The translations under genes were made by a program, and so were the position numbers. The notes beneath the pieces are model-generated. The model saw only the letters and a list, made by a program, of their open reading frames with translations, was not told where the DNA came from and searched no databases. A stretch of 64,000 bases of DNA, from contig OY759590.1 in the NCBI GenBank assembly GCA_963662445.1, positions 1,472,249 to 1,536,248 of the forward strand. The letters are read 5' to 3'. The DNA is from Desulfarculia bacterium. GTDB taxonomy: Bacteria; Desulfobacterota; Desulfarculia; Adiutricales; JAGVGV01. Positions 52,404 through 63,469 of this stretch are shown here, one piece after another; position 1 is the first letter of the stretch, and every line of letters begins with the position of its first letter.

Positions 52404-52652
52404 AAGTGTTATCCTCCACCGGACAAGGCAGGTGCGCCCACCGACCGGCTGGCTTGACGCTGTGTTCGTTGTTTGCTGAACTTAATTTAACATGTAAAGC
52501 CTCAAACGACCAGATGCCCTGGCTTTGCCCCAACCCGTGCCGGTTTCTTTCGGCCGTGCCGGAGTATTTTCTCGTTTCTCCCGACGAGTCTCCTGAAAAT
52601 GTGTCCGGGCGTCATTTTTTTCTTGACCACATCGTTTGCTTCCTGTAATTGT

Positions 52653-52670
52653 TTCCATCAAATGCTGGAA
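52653..52670. promoter_or_regulatory. Candidate TetR operator (imperfect palindrome) at the tetR promoter
   Basis: TTCCATCAAATGCTGGAA. 15 of 16 core positions are identical to the site at 53421-53438. It lies downstream of a possible TTGACC-17-TAATTG promoter. Confidence 0.4.
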
Positions 52671-52691
52671 GAAAGGGTTTGGACTTTCCGC

Positions 52692-53327
52692 ATGCCTTCA
52701 CCACTCGAAAAAGCCCGAAAAGATCCGGACTCCATGAAAGCCAAGATACTGGCCGTGGCCAAGCGCGTCTTCGGGCAATACGGGTATCATGGCGCGACCA
52801 CCCGCATCATCGCCAAGGAAGTCGGTATCGACATCTCCACTCTCTATTATCACTGGGGTGAGAAGAACGACCTGTATGAAGCGGTTATCCTCGACATTAC
52901 CGAGGATCTCCGGCAGCAGCTCGGTCGGGTCGAGAAGACGGTCCGCGGACGGCCTCTGGCCGAGCGTATGGACATCGCCATAGACATGATGACCGACTAC
53001 CTGTTCCAGAATTCCGAAATAGCCAACCTGACCTTTTTCCGTTATTTCGCCAAGACCCGGGAAAAAATGAAGTGGCAGGACAAAATTCCCGACTTTGTCT
53101 CGGACATCGCCCGGTCCATGGGCATAGCGGAAGAGGACGGCACCGTCTCCATCCACGCCCGTATGCGCATCCTCTGCATGATGAACTCCATCTACGATTT
53201 CATTTCCGGCGAGGAATTTTTCCGTGCGGCCCTGGAACTGGAGCGCGACGAGTATATTCCCCTGGCCATAGAAACGCTGAAATTCATTCTCATACCGGCC
53301 TTTGCCGGAGTTAAGCCAGCCGCCTGA
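52692..53327 (+). CDS. TetR/AcrR-family transcriptional regulator
   Basis: KAKILAVAKRVFGQYGYHGATTRIIAKEVGIDISTLYYHWGEKNDLYEAV is a TetR HTH. The start could also be ATG at 52662. Confidence 0.85.
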   Translation: MPSPLEKARKDPDSMKAKILAVAKRVFGQYGYHGATTRIIAKEVGIDISTLYYHWGEKNDLYEAVILDITEDLRQQLGRVEKTVRGRPLAERMDIAIDMMTDYLFQNSEIANLTFFRYFAKTREKMKWQDKIPDFVSDIARSMGIAEEDGTVSIHARMRILCMMNSIYDFISGEEFFRAALELERDEYIPLAIETLKFILIPAFAGVKPAA

Positions 53328-53500: not shown

Positions 53501-55636
53501 ATGGCCCTCAATCTGGACGCCATCGGCAAGAAGATCGGCCCCCTCAGCAAGGACTATGACTGGAAAGACATAGTCCTCTATGCCCTGGGCGTAGGGGCCG
53601 GCTTTGACGAGTTGGACTACGTGTACGAAAACCGCCTCAAGGTGATCCCCAGCTACTCCATCGCCAGTGTCTTCGATTTTCTGGCTGAAGCGGCTCTTTC
53701 GGCCAACGCCAACCTGGCCGGGATTCTCCATGGGGAACAGGACATCATTTTCCACAATCCAATACCTGTCGAAGGCACCCTGACCACCGAGGGCGCGGTT
53801 ACCCACATGTTCGACAAGGGTGAGGGCAAAGGCGCGCTGGTGGTGGCCAAGGCCGACACCTACCATTCCAACGGCCAGAAACTCTTCACCAATATCTTCA
53901 CCCTGTTCAGCCGTCTGGACGGAGGCTTCGGCGGCGAAAAGGGTGACGAGGAGAAGGTGGATTTCCCCGACCGCGCTCCGGATTTCGAGGAACTGGCCAA
54001 TCCTTCGGAGGATCAGCCGCTTCTGTACCGGCTTTCCGGGGACATCTTCACCCTCCATGTCGATCCCGATTTCGCCAAGGCCTCGGGCTTTGAAAAACCC
54101 ATCATGCACGGGCTCTGCACGCACGGGTACACCTGCCGCGCAGTCATCAAACACCTGTTCCCCGGCGAACCGGAGCGCATGTCCCGTTTCCGCGTCCGTT
54201 TCTCCCGGACGCTCTATCCCGGCATCGCCATCAAGACTCAGATCTGGAAGACCGAAGAGGGGCGGGCTGTTTTCCGGGTGGTCAACACGGCCAACAACGA
54301 CGTTGTCATCGACAAGGGCGTGGTGGAATGGCTCAGCAAGGAAGAGTATGAGCGCCGCCAGCGTCTGGGCGGTCTGCGTTTTGAAGACAAGGTTGCTGTG
54401 GTTACCGGTGCCGGGGCCGGTCTCGGCCGGGTGTACGCCTTGGAACTGGCCAAGAGGGGGGCCAAGGTTGTGGTCAACGACCTGGGCGGTTCCCGCGACG
54501 GGGCCGGGGGCTCATCGGCTCCGGCCGACACTGTGGTCAAGGAGATCAAGGCGATGGGCGGCGAGGCTGTGGCCAACTACGATTCCGTGGCCACCGCCGA
54601 GGGCGGTCAGGCCATAATCGACGCGGCTGTGGCCGCTTTCGGCCGGGTGGACATCGTCATCAACAACGCCGGCATCCTCCGGGACAAGACCCTGGTCAAG
54701 ATGGACCCGGAAAACTGGGACACGGTCATGGACGTGCATCTCAAGGGTGCTTACAACGTCACCCGTCCGGCCTATGTCAAGATGCGGGAACAGGGTTACG
54801 GCCGGATAGTCTTTACCACCTCGGCCGCCGGTTTGTACGGCAACTTCGGCCAGACCAACTACTCGGCCGCCAAGATGGGGCTGGTAGGCTTTATGAACAC
54901 ATTGAAGATAGAGGGCGGGAAGAACGACATCAAGGTCAACACCGTGGCTCCGGTGGCGGCCACCCGGCTGACCGAAGACATCCTGCCGCCTGAGATGCTG
55001 GCCAAGCTCAAGCCTGAATTCGTGGCTCCCCTGGTCCTTTATCTCTGTTCGGAGCAGTGCCCTGATTCCGGCCGGATCTACAACGCCGGCATGGGGTACT
55101 TCAACCGTGCGGCGGTTCTGACCGGTCCTGGTGCGGTGGTCGGCGACGGCAAGTCCATACCCACGCCCGAGCAGGTGGCCGAGGCCATGCCCAAGATCAA
55201 AGCCATGGGCGGGGCCAAGGAATACCCCAATCTCAACGCGGCTCTGACGCCCATGCTGGAAGCCTTTTCGCCCAAGAAAGAGGCGCCGGCGGCCGGGGCG
55301 CAGGGGGGCGGAGGCGGCTTGACCGTGCCCGGAATCTTCGCGGCCATGAAGGATGCCTTCCAGGCCGACAAGGCCGCCGGGGTCGAGGTGGTTTTTCAGT
55401 ATGACATCAGCGGCGCGGGCGGCGGTTCCTGGAACGTCCAGATCAAGGACGGGGCCTGCTCCATCGCGGAGGGCAAACACGCCAGCCCCACCACCACCCT
55501 GGGCATGGGTGATGAAGACTTCATCCGGATGATCCGGGGCGAACTGAACGCCATGACGGCTTTCACCAGCGGCAAGCTCAAGATCGGCGGCGATGTCATG
55601 AAGTCTCAACTCATCGAAAAACTCTTCAAGTTCTGA
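53501..55636 (+). CDS. MFE-2-like multifunctional enzyme: double hot-dog (R)-specific enoyl-CoA hydratase 2, then SDR (3R)-hydroxyacyl-CoA dehydrogenase, then an SCP2 domain
   Basis: 711 aa. Hydratase-2-type motif YRLSGDIFTLHVDPDFA. The SDR region (VAVVTGAGAGLGRVYALELAKRGAKVVVNDLGG, NNAGILRD, GNFGQTNYSAAK) resembles the HSD17B4 dehydrogenase domain as I remember it. The C-terminal SCP2-like region is GDEDFIRMIRGELNAMTAFTSGKLKIGGD. Confidence 0.9.
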   Translation: MALNLDAIGKKIGPLSKDYDWKDIVLYALGVGAGFDELDYVYENRLKVIPSYSIASVFDFLAEAALSANANLAGILHGEQDIIFHNPIPVEGTLTTEGAVTHMFDKGEGKGALVVAKADTYHSNGQKLFTNIFTLFSRLDGGFGGEKGDEEKVDFPDRAPDFEELANPSEDQPLLYRLSGDIFTLHVDPDFAKASGFEKPIMHGLCTHGYTCRAVIKHLFPGEPERMSRFRVRFSRTLYPGIAIKTQIWKTEEGRAVFRVVNTANNDVVIDKGVVEWLSKEEYERRQRLGGLRFEDKVAVVTGAGAGLGRVYALELAKRGAKVVVNDLGGSRDGAGGSSAPADTVVKEIKAMGGEAVANYDSVATAEGGQAIIDAAVAAFGRVDIVINNAGILRDKTLVKMDPENWDTVMDVHLKGAYNVTRPAYVKMREQGYGRIVFTTSAAGLYGNFGQTNYSAAKMGLVGFMNTLKIEGGKNDIKVNTVAPVAATRLTEDILPPEMLAKLKPEFVAPLVLYLCSEQCPDSGRIYNAGMGYFNRAAVLTGPGAVVGDGKSIPTPEQVAEAMPKIKAMGGAKEYPNLNAALTPMLEAFSPKKEAPAAGAQGGGGGLTVPGIFAAMKDAFQADKAAGVEVVFQYDISGAGGGSWNVQIKDGACSIAEGKHASPTTTLGMGDEDFIRMIRGELNAMTAFTSGKLKIGGDVMKSQLIEKLFKF

Positions 55637-55656: not shown

Positions 55657-58398
55657 ATGATCGGCATCACAGCATACGGCGGTTACATCCCCCGGCTCAG
55701 GCTTAACCGCATGTCCATCTACCAGGCCATGGGCTGGTTCGCCCCGGCCCTGATCGCGGTGGCCCAGGGGGAGAGGTCATTCTGCAACTGGGATGAAGAC
55801 AGCCTGACCATGGCCGTGGCCGCGGGCAAGGACTGTCTGACCGGACAGGATAAATCCCTGATCGACGGTGTATTTCTAGGTTCGACAACCCTGCCGTTCA
55901 GCGACCGGCTGAACTCGGGGGTTCTCAAAACGACCCTCAACCTGGGCGACGAGATCAAGGCGGCGGACTTCACGTCGTCTCTCCGTGCCGGGACCACGGC
56001 GCTGGTGGAGGCTCTGACGGCGGTCAAGAGCGGGGACAACAACCAGGTCCTGGTTGCGGCCTCGGACAAGCGCCAGGCCAAGATGGGTTATTTCTACGAG
56101 ATGTGGTTCGGCGACGGAGCCGCGTCGGTTCTGGTCGGGCGGGAAAACGTCATCGCCGAACACCTGGGCTCCCATACGGTGACCAGCGACTTCGTGGATC
56201 ACTACCGGGGCCAGAACAACCAGTTCGATTACATGTGGGAAGAGCGCTGGGTCCGCGATGAAGGGTATTCCAAGATAGTTCCGGCCGCCGTCAACGGCCT
56301 GCTGAAGAAGCTTTCCCTGTCCATGGACGACATCAGCCGGTTTGTTTTCCCCTGTTTCTTCAAGGCCGAGCATCTGAAGATAGGCAAGGGCCTTGGGGCC
56401 GGGGGCGGCAAGCTGATGGACAACCTGCACGAGGTCTGCGGCGAGACCGGGGCGGCTCATCCCCTGGTCATGCTGGTCAAGGCGCTGGAGGAAGCCAAGC
56501 CCGGAGACCGGATTCTGGTGGCCGGTTTCGGGCAGGGCTGCGACGCCATGTGCTTTCAGGTCACCGAGGCTATCCTGGACCTGCCGGCCCGCCGGGGCAT
56601 AAACGGTTCCCTGGCCCAGAAGAAGACCACGGACAACTATCAGAAGTTTCTGAAGTTCCGGGACCTGATACAGCCGGAGATGGGCATCAGGGCGGAAGCG
56701 CCGACCCAGACGGCCATGACGGTGCTGTACCGCAAGAGGGACATGCTGTTCGGGCTGGTCGGCGGGAAGTGTTCCAAGTGCGGCACTCCCCAGTTCCCGC
56801 GCATGGATATATGCGTCAACCCGGACTGCCGCGCCGTGCATACTCAGGAGCCTTATGAATTCGCCGGTGTTCCGGCCAAGGTCAAGACCTTTACCGGTGA
56901 CCTGCTGGCCGTTTCGGTCGATCCGCCCGCCATCTACGGCATGGTTCAGTTTGAAGGCGGCGGACGCTTCATGGCCGACTTCACGGATTGCGAACTCGGC
57001 GATGTCCGGGTGGGACAGCCGGTGGAGATGAGCTTCCGGAGGCGTTACCTTGACCGGGAGCGTGGTTTTTCGGGGTATTTCTGGAAAGCCGTTCCGCTGC
57101 CCGTGAAGGAAGCCCCTGCGGCTTCCGAGGAGCGCATCCGTTTTGACGATCAGGTGGCAGTGGTCACCGGGGCCGGGGCTGGTCTTGGGCGGGTATATGC
57201 GCTCGAACTGGCCAAACGGGGAGCCAAAGTCGTCGTCAACGACCTGGGTGGGGCTCGCGACGGCGCCGGAGGCTCCTCGACCCCGGCCGACACTGTGGTC
57301 AAGGAGATCAAGGAGCTGGGCGGCGAGGCCGTGGCCAACTACGATTCCGTGGCTACGCAGGAAGGCGGACAGTCCCTTATCGACGCAGCCGTGGCCGCTT
57401 TCGGCCGGGTGGACATCGTGGTCAACAACGCCGGCATCCTCCGGGACAAGACCCTGGTGAAGATGGACCCGGAAAACTGGGACGCGGTCATGGCGGTTCA
57501 TCTTAAGGGCGCTTACAACGTCACCCGCCCGGCCTTTATAAAGATGCGCGAACAGGGTTACGGCCGCATAATTTTCACCACTTCCGCCGCCGGACTGTAC
57601 GGCAATTTCGGCCAGACCAACTATTCGGCCGCCAAGATGGCCCTGGTGGGCTTCATGAACACCCTCAAAGCCGAAGGCGAGAAGCACAACATCCGGGTCA
57701 ACACAGTGGCCCCCATCGCCGCTACCCGGTTGACTGAAGACGTGATGCCGCCGGATCTGTTCGCCAAGCTCAAGCCGGAATTCGTGGCTCCGCTGGTGCT
57801 TTATCTGGCTTCTAACGAATGCTCCGAAACCGGCCAGATATTCAACGCGGGCATGGGGTACTTCAACCGGGCGGCCATAGTCACCGGTCCGGGCGCGGTA
57901 GTCGGCGACGGCAAGACTCCCCCGGCCCCGGAAGAGCTGCACAAGAATTGGGAGGCGGTCAATTCGCTGGAGGGCGGTCAGGAATACCCCAACGCCACCG
58001 CGGCTTTCAGCCCCATGCTGGATGCTTTTTCGCCCAAGAAGGCTGAAGCGGCGGAAGGCGGGGCCGGTTCCGGCGGCGGACAGGCCGTGGCCGGTATTTT
58101 CGAGGGCATGCCGGGAGCTTTCCAGGCGGACAAAGCCGCAGGGGTGGACGTGGTCTTCCAGTTCTCCATCACCGGGCCCGAAGGCGGCGACTGGTTCGCC
58201 GTGGTCAAGGACGGCAAGCTGGAAGTGGGCCAGGGCCGGCACGGTTCGCCGACCACCACCATAAAGATGGCCGATCAGGACTTCGTCAAGCTCATCACCG
58301 GCGAACTGAACGCCATGGCCGCCTTCACGGGGGGCAAGCTCCGTATAGATGGCGACCTGATGAAGTCCCAGCTCATAGAGAAGCTTTTCAAGTTCTGA
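55657..58398 (+). CDS. Four-domain fusion: HMG-CoA-synthase-like thiolase-fold domain, DUF35 (zinc ribbon plus OB fold), SDR dehydrogenase, SCP2
   Basis: 913 aa. N-terminus MIGITAYGGYIPRLRL (HMGCS/COG3425-like). CSKCGTPQFPRMDICVNPDC followed by an OB-fold region (DUF35). The SDR and SCP2 part is about 80-85% identical to the upstream gene. Confidence 0.85.
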   Translation: MIGITAYGGYIPRLRLNRMSIYQAMGWFAPALIAVAQGERSFCNWDEDSLTMAVAAGKDCLTGQDKSLIDGVFLGSTTLPFSDRLNSGVLKTTLNLGDEIKAADFTSSLRAGTTALVEALTAVKSGDNNQVLVAASDKRQAKMGYFYEMWFGDGAASVLVGRENVIAEHLGSHTVTSDFVDHYRGQNNQFDYMWEERWVRDEGYSKIVPAAVNGLLKKLSLSMDDISRFVFPCFFKAEHLKIGKGLGAGGGKLMDNLHEVCGETGAAHPLVMLVKALEEAKPGDRILVAGFGQGCDAMCFQVTEAILDLPARRGINGSLAQKKTTDNYQKFLKFRDLIQPEMGIRAEAPTQTAMTVLYRKRDMLFGLVGGKCSKCGTPQFPRMDICVNPDCRAVHTQEPYEFAGVPAKVKTFTGDLLAVSVDPPAIYGMVQFEGGGRFMADFTDCELGDVRVGQPVEMSFRRRYLDRERGFSGYFWKAVPLPVKEAPAASEERIRFDDQVAVVTGAGAGLGRVYALELAKRGAKVVVNDLGGARDGAGGSSTPADTVVKEIKELGGEAVANYDSVATQEGGQSLIDAAVAAFGRVDIVVNNAGILRDKTLVKMDPENWDAVMAVHLKGAYNVTRPAFIKMREQGYGRIIFTTSAAGLYGNFGQTNYSAAKMALVGFMNTLKAEGEKHNIRVNTVAPIAATRLTEDVMPPDLFAKLKPEFVAPLVLYLASNECSETGQIFNAGMGYFNRAAIVTGPGAVVGDGKTPPAPEELHKNWEAVNSLEGGQEYPNATAAFSPMLDAFSPKKAEAAEGGAGSGGGQAVAGIFEGMPGAFQADKAAGVDVVFQFSITGPEGGDWFAVVKDGKLEVGQGRHGSPTTTIKMADQDFVKLITGELNAMAAFTGGKLRIDGDLMKSQLIEKLFKF

Positions 58399-58454
58399 AA
58401 ACAGCGTCATCTCGCCCCGGCCGGGTTCCGGGCGGGGCGGAGGAGGAATAAATA

Positions 58455-59663
58455 ATGGCCACAGGAATCAAGGACAAAGTCGCTATTATCGGCATGGGCT
58501 GCACCCGTTTCGGCGAGCGCTGGGACGTGGGGGCGGAGGAGCTCATGGTCGAGGCCTACTCCGAGTGCCTTGAAGACGCCGGTATCGAGACCAAGGATAT
58601 CCAGGCTGCCTGGCAGGGCACCTGCATGGAAGAGATAAACGTGGGCAAGAGCGCCCTGCCTCTGGCGACCACTCTGCGCCTGCCCTTCATCCCGGTCACG
58701 CGGGTGGAAAACTATTGCGCTTCCGGCACGGAGGCCTTTCGCGGGGCGGTGTACGCCGTGGCTTCCGGGGCTTACGATGTCTGTCTGGCCCTGGGGGTGG
58801 AGAAGCTGAAGGACACCGGCTACGGCGGCCTGCCGAACCCCGGATCGAACTTCGGCTCTTTGCAGTGGCTCTGGATGCCCAACATGACCGCCCCCGGCGT
58901 CTTTGCCCAGCTCGCTTCGGCCTATGCCGCCAAATTCAAGGTCAAGGACCAGGATCTGAAGAGGGCCATAGCCCAGGTATCGGTCAAGAGCCACGAGAAC
59001 GGGGCTCTCAATCCCAAGGCCCACCTGCGCAAGCGGGTAACCATCGATCAGGTCATGGCCGCGCCCATCATCGCCCATCCGCTGGGGCTCTTCGACTGCT
59101 GCGGGGTTTCGGACGGCTCGGCCTGCGCCATCGTCACTACGGTGGAAAAGGCCAAGGACATGGGCATCAAGAACCCGGTCACCGTCAAGGCTCTCCAACT
59201 CTCTCTTTCCAATGGCGAGGAGATGGGGTTCAACGAGTGGGAGGGGGCCAATTTCGCGACCACCGACAAGTGCAGTGTCAAGGCCTACAAGGAGGCCGGA
59301 ATAACCGACCCCCGCGAGGAAATTTCCATGATGGAGCTGCACGACTGTTTCTCCATCACCGAACTTGTCACTTACGAGGACCTGCATATCTCCGACAGGG
59401 GCAGCGCCTGGAAAGACGTGCTCGCGGGCTTCTACAACCGGGACGGCAAGGTTCCGGCCCAGGTCGACGGCGGCCTGAAATGCTTCGGCCATCCCATAGG
59501 CGCTTCAGGTCTGCGCATGCTCTACGAGATGTATCTGCAACTGCTGGGGCGGGCGGGTGACAGGCAGATCGAGAATCCCCGGCATGGCCTGACCCATAAC
59601 CTGGGCGGTTTTCCTTTCCAGAATGTTTGCAGCATCGCCATAGTCGGGCGGCTCAACGATTAG
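58455..59663 (+). CDS. SCPx/Ltp-type thiolase (thiolase-domain protein of the kind that partners with DUF35)
   Basis: 402 aa. VAIIGMGCTRFGERW, nucleophile-type NYCASGTEAF, and C-terminal CFGHPIGASG. Confidence 0.9.
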   Translation: MATGIKDKVAIIGMGCTRFGERWDVGAEELMVEAYSECLEDAGIETKDIQAAWQGTCMEEINVGKSALPLATTLRLPFIPVTRVENYCASGTEAFRGAVYAVASGAYDVCLALGVEKLKDTGYGGLPNPGSNFGSLQWLWMPNMTAPGVFAQLASAYAAKFKVKDQDLKRAIAQVSVKSHENGALNPKAHLRKRVTIDQVMAAPIIAHPLGLFDCCGVSDGSACAIVTTVEKAKDMGIKNPVTVKALQLSLSNGEEMGFNEWEGANFATTDKCSVKAYKEAGITDPREEISMMELHDCFSITELVTYEDLHISDRGSAWKDVLAGFYNRDGKVPAQVDGGLKCFGHPIGASGLRMLYEMYLQLLGRAGDRQIENPRHGLTHNLGGFPFQNVCSIAIVGRLND

Positions 59664-59672
59664 GAGGCAGGA

Positions 59673-60017
59673 ATGCTGGAAATCCGGGCGATCATGGATT
59701 CGGCCGTGGAAGACGTTTTGAATTTCAAGACCTGCTGCGGAGCGCGAACTTTCGATCAGAACCTGGAGATCCACGTCAAGAATACTGGTTCCGACCCGGT
59801 GGTGGTCCCCAGCCGCTTCGATCTGGAGGGCGGCTTCGGGACCTACCGGGTCGAGACTCTCATCCCTCACGGAGACCAGTACATAGCGCCGGGTGTGACC
59901 ATAGCCTTCTACTGCACCATGGAGCCCGGCCGCTGGGCCGACGCCCGGCGCATGATTTTTCAGGACAATCAAGGCCGCAGTTACCCCGTGGACATCATCC
60001 ACGAGCAGAAGGAGTAA
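59673..60017 (+). CDS. Hypothetical protein (114 aa) with no family I recognise
   Basis: AGGAGG lies 6 nt upstream of the start. The gene begins 9 nt after the thiolase stop and ends 4 nt before the ACAD start. Codon usage resembles its neighbours. Confidence 0.6.
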   Translation: MLEIRAIMDSAVEDVLNFKTCCGARTFDQNLEIHVKNTGSDPVVVPSRFDLEGGFGTYRVETLIPHGDQYIAPGVTIAFYCTMEPGRWADARRMIFQDNQGRSYPVDIIHEQKE

Positions 60018-60021
60018 GAAA

Positions 60022-61164
60022 ATGAATATCCTCTCCTATACCGAAGAACACCGCATTTTCCGCGAGAGTCTCCGTAAATTTTTTGAAAAGGAAGTCATTC
60101 CTCATGTGGAGGAATGGGAAGAGGCCGGCATTGTCCCCAAGTCCGTCTGGAAAAAGATGGGCGACCAGGGCTTCCTGTGCATGACGGTGCCGGAGGAATA
60201 CGGCGGTCTGGGGGCTGATTTCCTTTATTCGGTCATCATGACCGAGGAACTGGCCCGCACGAACCATTCCGGGCTGGCCGTCCCTCTGCACAGCGACATA
60301 GTGATTCCTTACATCCTGTCCTTCGCCTCGGAGGAACTGAAGCACAAATATCTGCCCGGCTGCGTGTCCGGCGACACGATCACAGCCGTGGCCATGACCG
60401 AGCCCAACGCTGGTTCGGACCTTGCGTCGATGCGGACCACGGCTGTGCAGGACGGAGACCATGTTGTCATCAACGGGCAGAAGACCTTCATTTCCAACGG
60501 CATAAATTCCGACCTGGTCGTTCTGGCGGCCAAGGACCCGTCGGTTACGAACCCTCACCAGTCGATAGACCTTTATCTGGTGGAAGCCGGGACGCCCGGT
60601 TTCGAGAAGGGCAAGAAGATCAAGAAGGTGGGCTGGCACAGCCAGGATACGGCGGAGCTGTTTTTCACTGACTGCCGCGTGCCCGTGGCCAACCGGCTGG
60701 GCATGAAGGGCGGCGGCTTCCTGATGCTCATGGAGAAACTCCAGCAGGAGCGCCTGATGTGTGCGCTGGTCGCGGTGGCTTCGGCGGAGAACATGATCGA
60801 AATGACGACCCGGTATGTCAAGGAACGCACCGCCTTCGGCCGGCCCATTTCCAAGTTCCAGAACACTCAGTTCCGCATGGTGGAAATGGCCACCGAGGTG
60901 AAGCTGGGGCGTACTTTCATCGACAAGCTCATTGCCGAACACGTGGAAGGCAAGAACGTGGTGGTGGAAGTTTCCATGGCTAAATACTGGACCACGGAGA
61001 TGGCCATGCGGGTGGCCGACGGCTGCGTGCAACTCCACGGCGGTTACGGGTACTGCGAGGAATACCCCATTGCCAGGGCCTGGCGTGACACGCGGGTACT
61101 TTCGATTTTCGCGGGCACCAACGAGATCATGAAGGGTATCGCGGCCAAGTTCATGGGACTCTGA
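60022..61164 (+). CDS. Acyl-CoA dehydrogenase
   Basis: 380 aa. AVAMTEPNAGSDLASMRTTA, and C-terminal YGYCEEYPIARAWRDTRVLSIFAGTNEIM. Confidence 0.9.
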   Translation: MNILSYTEEHRIFRESLRKFFEKEVIPHVEEWEEAGIVPKSVWKKMGDQGFLCMTVPEEYGGLGADFLYSVIMTEELARTNHSGLAVPLHSDIVIPYILSFASEELKHKYLPGCVSGDTITAVAMTEPNAGSDLASMRTTAVQDGDHVVINGQKTFISNGINSDLVVLAAKDPSVTNPHQSIDLYLVEAGTPGFEKGKKIKKVGWHSQDTAELFFTDCRVPVANRLGMKGGGFLMLMEKLQQERLMCALVAVASAENMIEMTTRYVKERTAFGRPISKFQNTQFRMVEMATEVKLGRTFIDKLIAEHVEGKNVVVEVSMAKYWTTEMAMRVADGCVQLHGGYGYCEEYPIARAWRDTRVLSIFAGTNEIMKGIAAKFMGL

Positions 61165-61219
61165 TCCCGGGCCTTTTTGTTCCGGCAGCGTTGCCTGCGA
61201 ATATTCCAGCCTACAAATT

Positions 61220-61253
61220 GGGGCCGCCGCCCATCCCGCCGGGCGGCGGCCCC
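61220..61253 (+). other. Very stable intra-operon hairpin (13 bp G+C stem)
   Basis: GGGGCCGCCGCCC-atcccgcc-GGGCGGCGGCCCC. No U-tract follows. Confidence 0.5.
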
Positions 61254-61301
61254 GCAACCTTATCCGGCCGCCGGGCCGCCGGCGGGGCAGGGGACGGGGA
61301 T

Positions 61302-61754
61302 ATGAACAGTCTTACGCCTGAACTTATTGCCAAGTATGTCGAGGAGGCGGTGCCTTTTGTCCACAGGACGGGCATTCGCTCGATCTCCCTGGAGCCGCGC
61401 CGGGTCAAGATGATGGTCCCGCTGGCCGGTAACGAGAACCACATCGGCTCCATGTACGCCGGCGCTCTCTTTACCCTGGCGGAGATGCCCGGCGGAGCCG
61501 TCTTTCTGACCACTTTCGATGCGTCAGTTTTTTATCCCGTGGTCAAGGAGATGAACATCCGGTATCTGAAGCCCGCCCGTTCCGATGTGACCATTGAAAT
61601 CGCCATAGCCGCCGACGAGGCCGAGCGCATAGAAAAGGAGGCCCGGGAAAAAGGCAAGGCCGAATTCATCCTGGAGGGCGAACTGATAGACCGTGACGGC
61701 CAGGTCGTCGCCCGCAGTCATGGCGTTTACCAGATAAGACTCATTGGCCGCTGA
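61302..61754 (+). CDS. PaaI/YiiD_C-type hot-dog thioesterase
   Basis: VPLAGNENHIGSMYAGALFTLAEMPGGAVF is typical of the family. I took ATG at 61302. Confidence 0.75.
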   Translation: MNSLTPELIAKYVEEAVPFVHRTGIRSISLEPRRVKMMVPLAGNENHIGSMYAGALFTLAEMPGGAVFLTTFDASVFYPVVKEMNIRYLKPARSDVTIEIAIAADEAERIEKEAREKGKAEFILEGELIDRDGQVVARSHGVYQIRLIGR

Positions 61755-61774: not shown

Positions 61775-63469
61775 GTGAGCTACGATGACCGTCCCTGGTT
61801 GAAATGGTATGACGATGGCGTCAAGCCGGAAGTCCGGGTTCCCGATGAAACAGCTCTCGACCGCCTCCTGCGCGTCCGGGACAAATACTCGGGCAGGCCT
61901 GCCTTGTACTTTCTTGGCCGGACCATAACCTATGCCCGGCTCTTCGAGCATTCCGCCCGCTTCGCCCAGGCCCTTTCCAAGGCCGGGTGCCGTCCCGGCG
62001 ATGTCGTGGCCATCAACCTCCCCAACATCCCTCAATACCTGGTCGCCCAGATCGGCGCGATCATGGCCGGTTGCGCAGCCTCGGGCCTTTCGCCTCTGCT
62101 CACTGCGCCGGAGATGGTCCACCAGCTCAAGGACAGCCGGGCCGCCGCCCTGGTCACTCTGGACGCGGTTTTTGAAAAGCGTTTTCTGGAGATAGAAAAA
62201 CAGCTCCCTGACCTGAAGTTCGTCGCCGCCGCCGGGCTGCTCGACTACGCCAGTCCGGTCAAACGTTTGCTGGGGAACTGGCTGAAAAAGGTACCCACCG
62301 GCAAGGTCACCCCTCTGCCCGGACGCACGGTCGCCCGCTTCAAGGAAATGCTCAAGGAGAACGAGCCCAATCCGCCGGAAGTGAAGATCACTCCGGACCA
62401 CACCATGCTGGTCCAGTACACCGGCGGGACCACCGGTTTGCCGAAGGGGGCCATGCTGACTCACCGGAATTTCATTTCGAACCTGGCCCAGTTCGATCAC
62501 TGGATGGGGCTGGAGCCTGGCCGCGAGGTATTCCTGTCCGGTTTTCCTTTCTTTCACCTAGCCGGGCTCGGCGTGGGCATGCTGGGATTGAGCCTGGGGG
62601 CGGCCCAGATACTCATCCCCAACCCTCGGGACACCAAGTTCATAGTCAAGGAAATGTCATCCCGGCCGCCGACCTTCATGACCAACGTTCCTTCCCTTTA
62701 CATGATGCTGACCGAGGATGAGGGATTCAGGAAGCTTGATTTTTCGGTCCTGAGCTGCTGCATATCGGGAGCCGCTCCGTACCCCGCGGAATCCATCCTG
62801 GAGCTCGAAAAGATCATCGGTCCGGGCAAGGTCGTGGAAGTGTACGGCATGACGGAGACCAGTCCTCTCATCACCATGAATCCCAGGCGGGGCCGGAAGA
62901 AGATCGGCTCCGTAGGCCTGCCTCTGCCTTCCACCCGCATCCGGCTAGTCGACCTGGAAAACGGCGTGGACCAGGTTCCGGTCGGCGAAGAAGGAGAACT
63001 GATCTGCCAGGGGCCTCAGGTCATGAAAGGCTACCATGGAAAACCGGCCGAGACGGCGGCCGTTCTCCGTCAGGCGGAAGACCAAATATGGATTCATACC
63101 GGCGACATTGCCCGGATGGATGAAGATGGTTTTTTCTATATCGTCGACCGGGCCAAGGACATGCTCAATGTGGGAGGATACAAGGTTTTTTCCCGCGAAC
63201 TGGAAGACAAATTTTACAGTCACCCGGCCATAGAGCTCTGCGCCGTCGTCGGATTGCCCAACCGGAAACGTCCCGGCAGCGAGATAGTCAAGCTGGTTGT
63301 CCAGAAATCGGCGGCCTGGCAGGACCGCACCGACGAAGAAACCCGTGCTGCCATTGATGAATACGCCCGGGCCAATCTTTCTGCGTACAAGGTGCCCAAG
63401 GTGATCGAATTCGTATCCAGTATGCCTCTGACCAACGTGGGGAAGGTTGACAAAAAGGCTCTACGCTGA
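61775..63469 (+). CDS. Long-chain acyl-CoA ligase (AMP-forming), FadD-like
   Basis: 564 aa. AMP-binding motifs YTGGTTGLPKGAMLTH, YGMTETS, TGDIARMDEDGFFYIVDRAKD, and a C-terminal GKVDKKAL. Confidence 0.9.
   Translation: MSYDDRPWLKWYDDGVKPEVRVPDETALDRLLRVRDKYSGRPALYFLGRTITYARLFEHSARFAQALSKAGCRPGDVVAINLPNIPQYLVAQIGAIMAGCAASGLSPLLTAPEMVHQLKDSRAAALVTLDAVFEKRFLEIEKQLPDLKFVAAAGLLDYASPVKRLLGNWLKKVPTGKVTPLPGRTVARFKEMLKENEPNPPEVKITPDHTMLVQYTGGTTGLPKGAMLTHRNFISNLAQFDHWMGLEPGREVFLSGFPFFHLAGLGVGMLGLSLGAAQILIPNPRDTKFIVKEMSSRPPTFMTNVPSLYMMLTEDEGFRKLDFSVLSCCISGAAPYPAESILELEKIIGPGKVVEVYGMTETSPLITMNPRRGRKKIGSVGLPLPSTRIRLVDLENGVDQVPVGEEGELICQGPQVMKGYHGKPAETAAVLRQAEDQIWIHTGDIARMDEDGFFYIVDRAKDMLNVGGYKVFSRELEDKFYSHPAIELCAVVGLPNRKRPGSEIVKLVVQKSAAWQDRTDEETRAAIDEYARANLSAYKVPKVIEFVSSMPLTNVGKVDKKALR

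Follow-up and report, generated by a model that had tools for sequence, protein, structure and literature searches.

What becomes of an HMG-CoA-synthase-like domain that has lost its catalytic residues and is fused to a dehydrogenase? The question is raised by a gene in a 64,000-nt stretch of the genome of a Desulfarculia bacterium (contig OY759590.1), the whole of which we call the window and whose numbering we use throughout. The gene (55657–58398; like every feature described below, on the forward strand) begins with an ATG that has GGAGG 8 nt upstream, and it encodes a protein of 913 aa. An earlier note on this DNA had described a fusion of HMGCS/KAS-III-like, DUF35, MFE-2-type SDR, and SCP2 domains, and both Pfam and alignments confirmed these four domains in this order: ACP_syn_III (110–171) and ACP_syn_III_C (216–297), zf-ChsH2 (367–392) and OB_ChsH2_C (419–461), adh_short (499–687), and SCP2 (825–912). 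An AF2 model of the protein had a mean pLDDT of 88.6; its pTM was only 0.64, the linkers were of low confidence, and the model does not fix how the SDR and SCP2 domains sit on the N-terminal hub. Current databases label such proteins only as “SDR family oxidoreductase” or “OB-fold protein” or, wrongly, as “HMG-CoA synthase.”

The HMG-CoA-synthase-like domain and its fused modules

We read the catalytic positions of the N-terminal pseudoenzyme domain, dHMGS (55657–56691, residues 1–345), from a HMMER alignment to the HMGCS of M. thermolithotrophicus (6esq_I). All four members of the E/C/H/N tetrad are replaced: Glu by T77 (GSESHP in 6esq_I vs. GSTTLP), Cys by L109 (EFACKAGT vs. TSSLRAGT), His by P232 (VFHQPNG vs. 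VFPCFFK), and the fourth residue, Asn, by E263 (LGNTYSG vs. CGETGAA). The alignment thus bears out the Leu in the nucleophile motif, the Thr in the general-base motif, and the missing His at FVFPCFF, which the earlier note had proposed by eye. The HMGS fold was likewise upheld. Using Foldseek, we found that the N-terminal domain of the AF2 model, where pLDDT is mostly >90, superposes on HMGCS 6et9_I with a TM score of 0.92 (rmsd 2.0 Å) and on PhlA 5m3k_A with 0.88 (0.88–0.89 for PhlA-type chains). The NCBIfam archaeal HMGCS model NF003274 gave residues 1–339 a score of 188 bits, short of its cut-off (244); with a dHMGS profile, PhlA-type subunits scored 246 and 238 bits, and archaeal HMGCS scored 210 bits. 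The nearest solved relatives of the domain are noncatalytic HMGS-like subunits, PhlA and MucA.

The substitutions extend across the family. Among 119 representatives, none has the original tetrad residue at the Glu, Cys, or His site. The Glu position is Thr in 104 of them, and the remaining sites vary: L, Q, R, M, A, or P for Cys; P, Y, A, S, or F for His; and D, N, H, E, Y, or F for Asn. Along with T77, R110 is well conserved, and the near-invariant residues DED 46–48, E148, R184, and R197 are identical in active archaeal HMGCS, with DED 46–48 and R184 identical in PhlA as well. Across 60 orthologues, identity is 66% in dHMGS, 73% in the SDR, and 80% in the thiolase encoded next door; because dHMGS retains this 66%, we consider it to be under selection. 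Judged from these comparisons, the loss of the tetrad is ancient and reflects neither chance nor decay. Since Thr is so strongly conserved at the old Glu site, the pocket may also keep a residual binding or catalytic role.

The DUF35 module (56692–57099, residues 346–481; Pfam zf-ChsH2 and OB_ChsH2_C) combines a Cys4 zinc ribbon with an OB fold, as the earlier note had stated, although the ribbon reads C372-x2-C375-x10-C386-x4-C391, with a middle spacing of 10 rather than the 11 given there. In 57 relatives, conservation of its four Cys is ≥90%, and the family profile matched the archaeal DUF35 subunit 6esq_E most closely (5e-26), with PhlB at 1.9e-15. The SDR domain (57148–58032, residues 498–792; Pfam adh_short, 6e-44) has all of its motifs intact (TGAGAGLG at 504, NNAG at 590, S643, Y656, and K660), and the acidic D529 in VVND, after strand β2, is of the NAD type. 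The best Foldseek matches were the MFE-2 dehydrogenase of rat (1gz6_A; 49% identity, 2.7e-31) and human HSD17B4 (1zbq_A; 49%). This domain is an intact NAD-type dehydrogenase, with predicted specificity for (3R)-hydroxyacyl-CoA. A low-confidence linker (793–808 in the AF2 model) leads into the SCP2 lipid-binding domain (58081–58398, residues 809–913 plus the stop codon; Pfam SCP2, 1.8e-18).

The adjacent thiolase and the conserved operon

The thiolase that the earlier note had placed next to this gene is present (58455–59663, 402 aa), as judged by Pfam and its catalytic residues. It is an SCP2-type enzyme, scoring 693 bits against NCBIfam NF004810 (cut-off 403), and carries Cys88 (YCAS), His296-Asp-Cys-Phe299 (HDxF), and Gly-His346-Pro; C88, H296, D297, F299, and H346 are invariant in all 60 partner thiolases compared. 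Its PDB matches include 7yvy_A (1.5e-54), the thiolase of the archaeal complex (6esq_A, 8e-53), and BbsB (1e-40), and its resemblance to PhlC is weak (8e-20, in the C terminus alone). This thiolase is fully equipped and is predicted to be the competent catalytic partner of the four-domain protein. In 61 of 63 readable loci, a thiolase starts ≤600 nt 3′ of a four-domain-type gene, and we regard the pairing as obligate. The short gap between the two genes holds a GC-rich hairpin (58405–58446) that lies just 5′ of the thiolase ribosome-binding site and overlaps part of it; its predicted RNA fold has −29.8 kcal/mol (z = −3.55), a stability reached by none of 200 shuffled sequences.

Both genes belong to a conserved operon of TetR, hydratase 2-SDR-SCP2, four-domain, thiolase, acyl-CoA dehydrogenase, and ligase genes. 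The TetR-family regulator (52599–53327; Pfam TetR_N, 1.4e-14) is the first gene of this module and lies 5′ of it in most related loci. An MFE-2-like protein of 711 aa follows (53501–55636), comprising a hydratase 2 (MaoC), a (3R)-hydroxyacyl-CoA dehydrogenase SDR, and SCP2 (Pfam MFE-2_hydrat-2_N, MaoC_dehydratas, adh_short, and SCP2). Its SDR motifs are also intact (TGAGAGLG at 302, NNAG at 388, and YSAAK at 454), and in 43 of the 45 loci with room for it, its gene immediately precedes the four-domain one. The MaoC domain thus resides in a separate protein without DUF35. Beyond the thiolase come a conserved ORF of 114 aa without a Pfam match (59673–60017), whose homologues occur within or just 3′ of the module in seven related loci, mostly beside the thiolase; an acyl-CoA dehydrogenase (60022–61164; Pfam Acyl-CoA_dh_N, _M, and _1), found downstream in many related loci; a hotdog-fold DUF4442/thioesterase-like protein (61191–61754; Pfam DUF4442, 4.6e-17, and YiiD_C); and an AMP-forming long-chain fatty-acid-CoA ligase (61775–63469; Pfam AMP-binding, 1.2e-86). 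The best NCBIfam matches of the ligase are long-chain-fatty-acid-CoA ligase models (top NF004114, 2.2e-124), all below their curated cut-offs. A Pfam scan of the neighbors of the four-domain gene found no PKS or NRPS genes. The cultured alkane degrader Desulfosarcina alkanivorans PL12 carries the module.

Relatives combine the same parts differently. A large family of ∼470–490-aa proteins consists of the dHMGS-DUF35 fusion, as in the Pseudomonas fluorescens type discussed below. Separate genes run SDR/MaoC/dHMGS-DUF35/ACAT/ACAD in Variovorax and SDR/MaoC/dHMGS-DUF35/ACAT in Sphingomonas; Syntrophaceae have dHMGS-DUF35/THL/SDR, and a myxobacterial MAG has dHMGS-DUF35/THL/SDR-SCP2-HYD2. Fusions include dHMGS-DUF35-SCP2 in an Anaerolineae MAG, dHMGS-DUF35-SDR, and dHMGS-DUF35-SCP2-SCP2, and the pairing of hub and thiolase also occurs on plasmids of Variovorax, Azoarcus, Sphingomonas, and Rhodococcus. 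These alternative fusions and gene orders point to a functional linkage of hub, SDR, MaoC, SCP2, and thiolase.

Relation to characterized complexes

Complexes of a dead HMGS, DUF35, and a thiolase have been published, namely PhlACB in 2018 (PMC6392133) and MucABC in 2026 (PMC12960953). PhlACB (PpATase, PDB ID code 5M3K) and MucABC (PDB ID code 9VBO) share with our locus the tripartite set, in which the dead subunit is structural and the thiolase-like subunit alone is catalytic. Active PhlC requires PhlA and PhlB, even though only PhlC residues perform the catalysis (PMC6392133), and MucB by itself is insoluble and inactive (PMC12960953). In these systems, unlike here, the three parts are separate polypeptides of secondary metabolism. 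Their thiolase-like subunit acylates aromatic or tetramic acceptors, and the HDxF motif is missing from PhlC and from MucB (PMC12960953), whereas the thiolase here has HDCF at 296–299. PhlA has C83 at the Glu position and G115 at the Cys position (PMC6392133); in our alignment, Q and D occupy its His and Asn positions, where the 913-aa protein has P232 and E263.

In P. fluorescens, an ACAT with a fused dead HMGS-DUF35 (PfACAT/HMGS-DUF35) cleaves acetoacetyl-CoA but fails to condense acetyl-CoA, and the exchange H294Y in its HDxF motif nearly abolishes activity (PMC12960953). The same study reported ∼1,000 bacterial HMGS/ACAT/DUF35 loci without secondary-metabolism neighbors, one representative of which showed thiolysis only, called the P. 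fluorescens complex an evolutionary intermediate, and left its physiological role open (PMC12960953). Every defining sequence feature of this type is present in our locus: the HMGS fold, loss of the E-C-H-N tetrad, a fused C-terminal DUF35, and an adjacent SCP2-type thiolase with CxS, HDxF, and GHx. PKS and NRPS neighbors are missing in both, and thiolysis would be expected here (we compared the two by published description). The difference is that the 913-aa protein adds an MFE-2-type dehydrogenase and SCP2 and that its gene lies within a complete, conserved β-oxidation operon.

Other systems share only some of these parts. The archaeal thiolase/HMGCS/DUF35 complex resembles ours in all three components (TM 0.92 for HMGCS and the DUF35 and thiolase matches given above), and its thiolase keeps HDxF. 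In contrast, its HMGCS is active (E82, C114, H238, and N270, all four substituted here), and the complex, which has no dehydrogenase or SCP2, serves anabolism by supplying the mevalonate pathway. Peroxisomal MFE-2 (HSD17B4) with the SCPx thiolase matches our operon in the (3R)-specific dehydrogenase, hydratase 2, SCP2, SCP2-type thiolase, and D-specific β-oxidation chemistry overall but differs in domain order and in how the domains are split over polypeptides; the eukaryotic system has no HMGS-like/DUF35 hub, and its thiolase bears its own SCP2. Certain SCP2-thiolase-fold enzymes of catabolic, β-oxidation-like pathways likewise require a DUF35 partner, as in the benzoylsuccinyl-CoA thiolase BbsAB (PDB ID code 7PXP), Ltp2-ChsH2, and Sal-Shy, none of which has an HMGS-like subunit.

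The earlier note had seen a new enzyme architecture in this protein, which holds in part. The core of dead HMGS-DUF35 and active thiolase is already known, because the P. fluorescens study characterized just such a pair. New here are the MFE-2-type dehydrogenase and SCP2 covalently attached to this core, together with the conserved operon; our literature search found no report of a dead-HMGS-DUF35 fused to these two domains or of such a β-oxidation operon.

Proposed function

We propose, with a probability of about 0.7, that the 913-aa protein is a noncatalytic hub and, at the same time, the dehydrogenase subunit of a D-specific (MFE-2/SCPx-like) β-oxidation complex. Homology and gene order indicate that it most likely holds the neighboring thiolase in one fatty-acid-degrading complex. 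The scaffold docking the adjacent thiolase, one of two options in the earlier note, is well supported by the PhlA and MucA relatives, the DUF35 match to 6esq_E, the intact thiolase, and the presence of a thiolase gene next door at nearly all readable loci. As in the solved archaeal, PhlACB, and MucABC complexes, dHMGS would dimerize and, with its fused DUF35, would clamp the thiolase dimer to form an interfacial CoA-binding chamber, which would keep the thiolase in a soluble, active state. The remaining steps are suggested by the fusion and the operon. The upstream hydratase 2-SDR-SCP2 protein would supply (3R)-hydroxyacyl-CoA, the tethered SDR would oxidize it to 3-ketoacyl-CoA beside the thiolase, and the thiolase would then cleave this product with CoA while the SCP2 domain grips the acyl chain; the acyl-CoA dehydrogenase and the ligase would close the cycle. 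True substrate channeling is speculative, as is recruitment of the upstream protein through heterodimerization of the two near-identical SDR modules. We infer the catabolic direction from the 49% identity to MFE-2, Asp529, the acyl-CoA dehydrogenase, the AMP-forming ligase, and the TetR regulator.

The same enzymes could in principle run in reverse, with the thiolase condensing, the SDR reducing to the (R)-alcohol, and MaoC dehydrating in a CoA-dependent fatty-acid elongation. In Sulfolobus, a ketothiolase/DUF35 does assemble with a MaoC dehydratase and an SDR reductase of (R) specificity into a fatty-acid synthase complex that works in biosynthesis (bioRxiv 10.1101/2024.07.05.601840), and our operon likewise codes for enzymes of all three types, again with (R) stereochemistry. 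That complex is anabolic, however, with unfused parts and no HMGS-like subunit, and its reductase is strictly NADPH-dependent, whereas the SDR here is of the NAD type and closest to catabolic MFE-2 dehydrogenases. The operon, moreover, encodes the AMP-forming ligase and, in place of an MDR enoyl reductase, an acyl-CoA dehydrogenase, and the P. fluorescens complex performs thiolysis without condensation, all of which makes elongation unlikely. Still less credible is a C-acyltransferase of the PhlACB/MucABC type, acting by Friedel-Crafts chemistry in secondary metabolism: in PDB sequence comparisons the N-terminal domain does match PhlA-type subunits best, but the HDCF of the thiolase, its poor match to PhlC, and neighbors that are β-oxidation genes and not PKS or NRPS genes leave this reading next to no room.

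Alternatively, dHMGS might have been retooled as a new catalyst, such as a retro-aldolase, thioesterase, or decarboxylase. Two reports describe Cys-less thiolase-superfamily proteins that act with DUF35 as aldolases, Ltp2/ChsH2 and Sal/Shy (PMC12329534, PMC11321319), and the conservation of T77 and R110 would fit an active site. In Ltp2 and Sal, however, the Cys-less member is the SCP2-thiolase-like protein itself, whose counterpart here keeps Cys88, and the fusion partner of their DUF35 is a MaoC hydratase, not an HMGS-like domain. The Cys and His sites of dHMGS vary within the family, as does the Asn site, which is unlike a retooled active site; most other near-invariant residues are shared with active archaeal HMGCS; and the pathway, whose enzyme set is already complete, needs no fifth activity. 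We regard a new catalyst as very unlikely, and the repurposed aldol-lyase that was the other option of the earlier note is not supported, given the intact Cys88/HDxF/GHP of the thiolase.

The operon may encode a hitherto unrecognized type of bacterial β-oxidation multienzyme complex, the prokaryotic counterpart of peroxisomal MFE-2/SCPx. Its dHMGS/DUF35 hub would join dehydrogenase, SCP2, and thiolase, and also the hydratase through heterodimers of the two coevolving SDR modules, with intermediates passing between active sites through an inherited, shared CoA-binding chamber. We offer this reading tentatively, at less than even odds. If it is true, the ∼1,000 bacterial “orphan” loci with HMGS/ACAT/DUF35 would code for catabolic thiolase complexes and not be evolutionary leftovers.

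The locus extends, in a way not described before, a complex type first characterized between 2018 and 2026. The MFE-2-type dehydrogenase/SCP2 fusion and the conserved operon place dead-HMGS/DUF35 complexes in D-specific β-oxidation and would give them a definite role in the final two steps of the cycle, which is also backed by the unfused SDR/MaoC/hub/thiolase order in proteobacteria. The assignment corrects the database names of these proteins and suggests a path to engineered modules for channeled β-oxidation or reverse β-oxidation. The dHMGS domain would be a clean case of a pseudoenzyme kept as an assembly platform.

Domain architecture and the lost synthase active site

The open reading frame at 55657-58398 (plus strand) has 913 codons, an ATG start, and a GGAGG 8 nt upstream. 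In Pfam, its product gave weak KAS-III-type matches (residues 110-171 and 216-297), the two parts of a DUF35 unit (a ChsH2-type zinc ribbon at 367-392 and an OB fold at 419-461), a strong SDR match (499-687), and SCP2 (825-912). The NCBIfam archaeal HMG-CoA synthase model spans residues 1-339 end to end, at 188 bits and hence below its trusted cutoff of 244. We obtained an AlphaFold2 model from 90 sequences (mean pLDDT of 88.6), which is poorly defined at the inter-domain linkers only and whose N-terminal domain superposes on 6et9_I with a TM score of 0.92 and an rmsd of 2.0 Å. These results confirmed the four-domain architecture described in an earlier note on this DNA; the zinc-ribbon spacing given there as C-x2-C-x11-C-x4-C is actually C-x2-C-x10-C-x4-C.

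The note had also claimed that the N-terminal domain lacks the catalytic residues of HMG-CoA synthase. A phmmer search of all PDB sequences aligned residues 2-338 to the HMG-CoA synthase of M. thermolithotrophicus (6esq_I), and each of the three losses was borne out in this alignment: Glu is replaced by Thr at T77 (GSESHP in 6esq_I, GSTTLP here), Cys by Leu at L109 (EFACKAGT, TSSLRAGT), and His is absent, with P232 at its position (VFHQPNG, VFPCFFK). The fourth residue of the E-C-H-N catalytic tetrad, Asn, has become E263 (LGNTYSG, CGETGAA). From the 6esq_I alignment and the superposition on 6et9_I, the domain therefore has neither a different fold nor a catalytic triad placed elsewhere, the two findings that the note had named as speaking against its reading. 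We refer to this domain, residues 1-345, as dHMGS.

With dHMGS as the query, an exhaustive HMMER search returned 2,400 matches among 1.84 billion cluster representatives, of which 416 fell below 1e-30. The majority have 470-490 residues, which corresponds to an HMGS-like domain plus DUF35 and no further domains. We aligned 119 of these relatives at the tetrad positions. The former Glu position holds Thr in 104 and Glu in none; L, Q, R, M, A, and others, never Cys, occupy the former Cys position, and P, Y, A, S, and others, never His, the former His position. ASTTxPF and GSLRAGT are the signatures of the family. Across 60 four-domain orthologues, mean identity to the window protein is 66% for dHMGS, 74% for DUF35, 73% for SDR, and 61% for SCP2, and the partner thiolase reaches 80% in the same comparison. 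Because the dHMGS domain is this well conserved (66% over 60 orthologues) and folds with a pLDDT above 90, we rejected the idea that it is a decaying pseudogene. It is a maintained pseudoenzyme, and the loss of its tetrad is old, family-wide, and selected.

The partner thiolase and related complexes

The next gene downstream (58455-59663) encodes an SCP2-type thiolase (NF004810, 693 bits against a cutoff of 403), most similar to 7yvy_A, the archaeal complex thiolase 6esq_A (8e-53), and BbsB (1e-40), with a weak resemblance to PhlC. Its catalytic motifs are present (YC88AS, H296-D-C-F299, and G-H346-P), and C88, H296, D297, F299, and H346 are invariant in 60 partner thiolases from related loci; judged by sequence, it is a real thiolase. 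The interval between the two genes contains a GC-rich hairpin (58405-58446; −29.8 kcal/mol, z = −3.55) with no T-run, the 3′ arm of which extends into the thiolase ribosome-binding site. This hairpin could tune thiolase translation or stabilize the mRNA.

The best solved sequence relatives of the N-terminal domain are the dead subunits of Friedel-Crafts acyltransferase complexes: the PhlA-type subunit of 9skh (2e-35), Pseudomonas protegens PhlA (5m3k_A, 6e-29), and S. macacae MucA (9vbo_A, 5e-25), with an active archaeal HMGCS at 4e-24. A family profile ranked PhlA-type proteins (246 and 238 bits) above archaeal HMGCS (210) and MucA (163), and its DUF35 half matched the archaeal complex DUF35 subunit 6esq_E (5e-26) and PhlB (1.9e-15). 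Each component of the three-part archaeal thiolase/HMGCS/DUF35 assembly therefore has a homologue in this system.

In PhlACB, Gly115 and Cys83 of PhlA correspond to the Cys and Glu of HMGCS, and catalysis relies on PhlC residues only, yet all three subunits must be coexpressed; within the dodecamer, Phl(A2C2)2B4, PhlB connects the dimers of PhlA with those of PhlC (PMC6392133). The structure of MucABC was solved in January 2026 in a study that set out formally that MucA and PhlA have lost the tetrad, and MucB and PhlC the HDxF motif (PMC12960953). Its authors also mined 1,030 bacterial HMGS/ACAT/DUF35 loci, of which 1,001 have no secondary-metabolism genes, and characterized a representative from P. 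fluorescens that pairs a fused, tetrad-less HMGS-DUF35 protein with a thiolase carrying Cys, HDxF, and GHx. This complex cleaved acetoacetyl-CoA, made neither acetoacetyl-CoA nor HMG-CoA, and was nearly inactive as an H294Y mutant; they saw it as an evolutionary intermediate that no pathway had yet recruited (PMC12960953).

Judged by that published description, the P. fluorescens complex has the same core as the window protein, the two-domain core of which is therefore of an already described kind. PhlACB and MucABC lack HDxF, whereas the window thiolase has HDCF. In the Ltp2 and Sal aldolases, it is the thiolase-fold protein that lacks the nucleophile, whereas C88 is kept here. The invariant C88, HDxF, and GHP thus set the window system apart from all four, and the earlier suggestion of a repurposed aldol-lyase is unsupported, since the thiolase is intact.

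Gene neighborhood and domain shuffling

The window module begins with a TetR gene (52599-53327), upstream of which lie unrelated housekeeping and regulatory genes. A hydratase 2 (HYD2)-SDR-SCP2 gene (53501-55636) precedes the four-domain gene and its thiolase; then come a conserved 114-aa ORF with no Pfam match (59673-60017), an acyl-CoA dehydrogenase, a hotdog protein of DUF4442/YiiD type that is a putative acyl-CoA thioesterase (61191-61754), and a long-chain acyl-CoA ligase. The set from TetR to thiolase also occurs in a Desulfomonile tiedjei MAG and in one 3.4-Mb genome.

We scanned one genome per species with an 11-sequence alignment as the query and found at least 587 loci. The best 80 are mostly from Desulfobacterales, Desulfomonilaceae, and Syntrophaceae, with some from Chloroflexi; Desulfosarcina alkanivorans PL12, a cultured alkane degrader, is among them. 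MAG loci were 78-80% identical to the window locus. A thiolase starts at most 600 nt downstream in 61 of the 63 loci with readable sequence. One of the two exceptions is cut off by a run of Ns, and the other still lists a thiolase ORF next. In 43 of 45 loci, the gene immediately upstream of the four-domain form encodes HYD2-SDR-SCP2. At least seven related loci (L001, L007, L009, L020, L056, L066, and L069) also have the 114-aa ORF, either within the module or shortly after its end and in most cases adjoining the thiolase; this ORF may encode an uncharacterized accessory of the module.

The two neighboring genes carry nearly duplicate SDR-SCP2 modules (54377-55636 and 57139-58398): protein identity between the SDR domains is 84%, and a 300-nt repeat at the DNA level shows the same identity, 84%. 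In 44 genomes, such within-genome pairs average 78% identity (maximum 99%) compared with 71-73% for orthologues between genomes, and in 8 genomes the upstream module's nearest relative is its own downstream copy. This pattern suggests gene conversion or repeated duplication, which perhaps maintains a dimer interface common to both.

Other lineages join the same parts differently. Syntrophaceae and Chloroflexi have dHMGS-DUF35, thiolase, and SDR; a myxobacterial MAG has dHMGS-DUF35, thiolase, and SDR-SCP2-HYD2; and an Anaerolineae MAG has HYD2, dHMGS-DUF35-SCP2, and thiolase. Further lineages carry dHMGS-DUF35-SDR, dHMGS-DUF35-SCP2-SCP2, or the four domains plus a second SCP2. Plasmids of Variovorax and Sphingomonas encode SDR, MaoC, dHMGS-DUF35, and acetyl-CoA acetyltransferase, followed in Variovorax by an acyl-CoA dehydrogenase, and on Azoarcus and Rhodococcus plasmids the dHMGS-DUF35/thiolase pair sits amid hydratase, dehydrogenase, and CoA ligase or transferase genes. 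Such surroundings speak for a role of the "orphan" complexes in catabolic pathways of the beta-oxidation type.

Individual cases of shuffling around this hub (loci L016, L042, L044, L047, and L058; database proteins P0121 and P0131) include proteins of about 1,040 aa with SCP2 in two copies, dHMGS-DUF35-SCP2 without SDR, dHMGS-DUF35-SCP2-SCP2, dHMGS-DUF35-SDR without SCP2, and tandem duplicated dHMGS-DUF35/thiolase/SDR units. We set aside database protein P0163 (723 aa; dHMGS, ATP-grasp, and molybdopterin-binding domains), which is probably chimeric or misassembled or a gene-calling artifact.

Pathway direction and proposed role

The SDR domain has the motifs TGAGAGLG (504), NNAG (590), S643, and Y656-x3-K660, and the structures it matches best are those of the MFE-2 (3R)-hydroxyacyl-CoA dehydrogenase units from rat and human (49% identity). 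An acidic residue after SDR strand β2 marks NAD preference; here, it is D529 in VVNDLGG. D529 and the likeness to MFE-2, together with HYD2, the acyl-CoA dehydrogenase, the AMP-forming ligase, and the thiolysis-only activity of the P. fluorescens complex, favor a degradative direction. The main rival is a biosynthetic role like that of the Sulfolobus ketothiolase/DUF35/SDR/MaoC fatty-acid synthase complex; however, the reductase of that complex is NADPH-specific, whereas the SDR here is of the NAD type. For degradation, long-chain or 2-methyl-branched acyl-CoAs are plausible substrates by analogy with MFE-2 and SCPx. Anaerobic alkane degradation also yields such acyl-CoAs.

The four-domain protein combines a dead HMGS fold, an intact DUF35, an intact NAD-type MFE-2 dehydrogenase, and SCP2, and an intact SCP2-type thiolase is invariably adjacent. 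By homology, the dHMGS dimer and fused DUF35 would clamp a dimer of the thiolase and supply the rest of its CoA-binding chamber, providing a platform for assembly and solubility as PhlA/PhlB do for PhlC and MucA/MucC for MucB. The fusion suggests that the tethered dehydrogenase would form 3-ketoacyl-CoA beside the thiolase, which would cleave it, with SCP2 accommodating the hydrophobic chain. More speculatively, there could be true channeling between active sites, and the upstream hydratase-dehydrogenase might dock through SDR heterodimers. The scaffold function proposed earlier gains support from homology to the tripartite complexes, the intact thiolase (60 partners), and the 61/63 adjacency.

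The proposal of a new architecture held in part: the dHMGS/DUF35/thiolase core was already known, but the variant seen here, with four fused domains and this operon, is undescribed. Our literature search found nothing specific on this fusion or on SCP2/MaoC/thiolase modules in sulfate reducers, and the Desulfococcus multivorans proteogenomics paper contains no mention of it. Family members bear database names such as "SDR family NAD(P)-dependent oxidoreductase," "OB-fold domain-containing protein," [quoted passage not shown] and "hydroxymethylglutaryl-CoA synthase," the last of which is wrong for proteins in which the entire catalytic tetrad is missing. Widely distributed in Desulfobacterota, the four-domain variant accounts for more than 120 protein clusters at ≥70% identity, and the sole annotation they carry is "SDR family oxidoreductase." The fusion and its operon give these complexes a physiological context that was absent from the 2026 study (PMC12960953).
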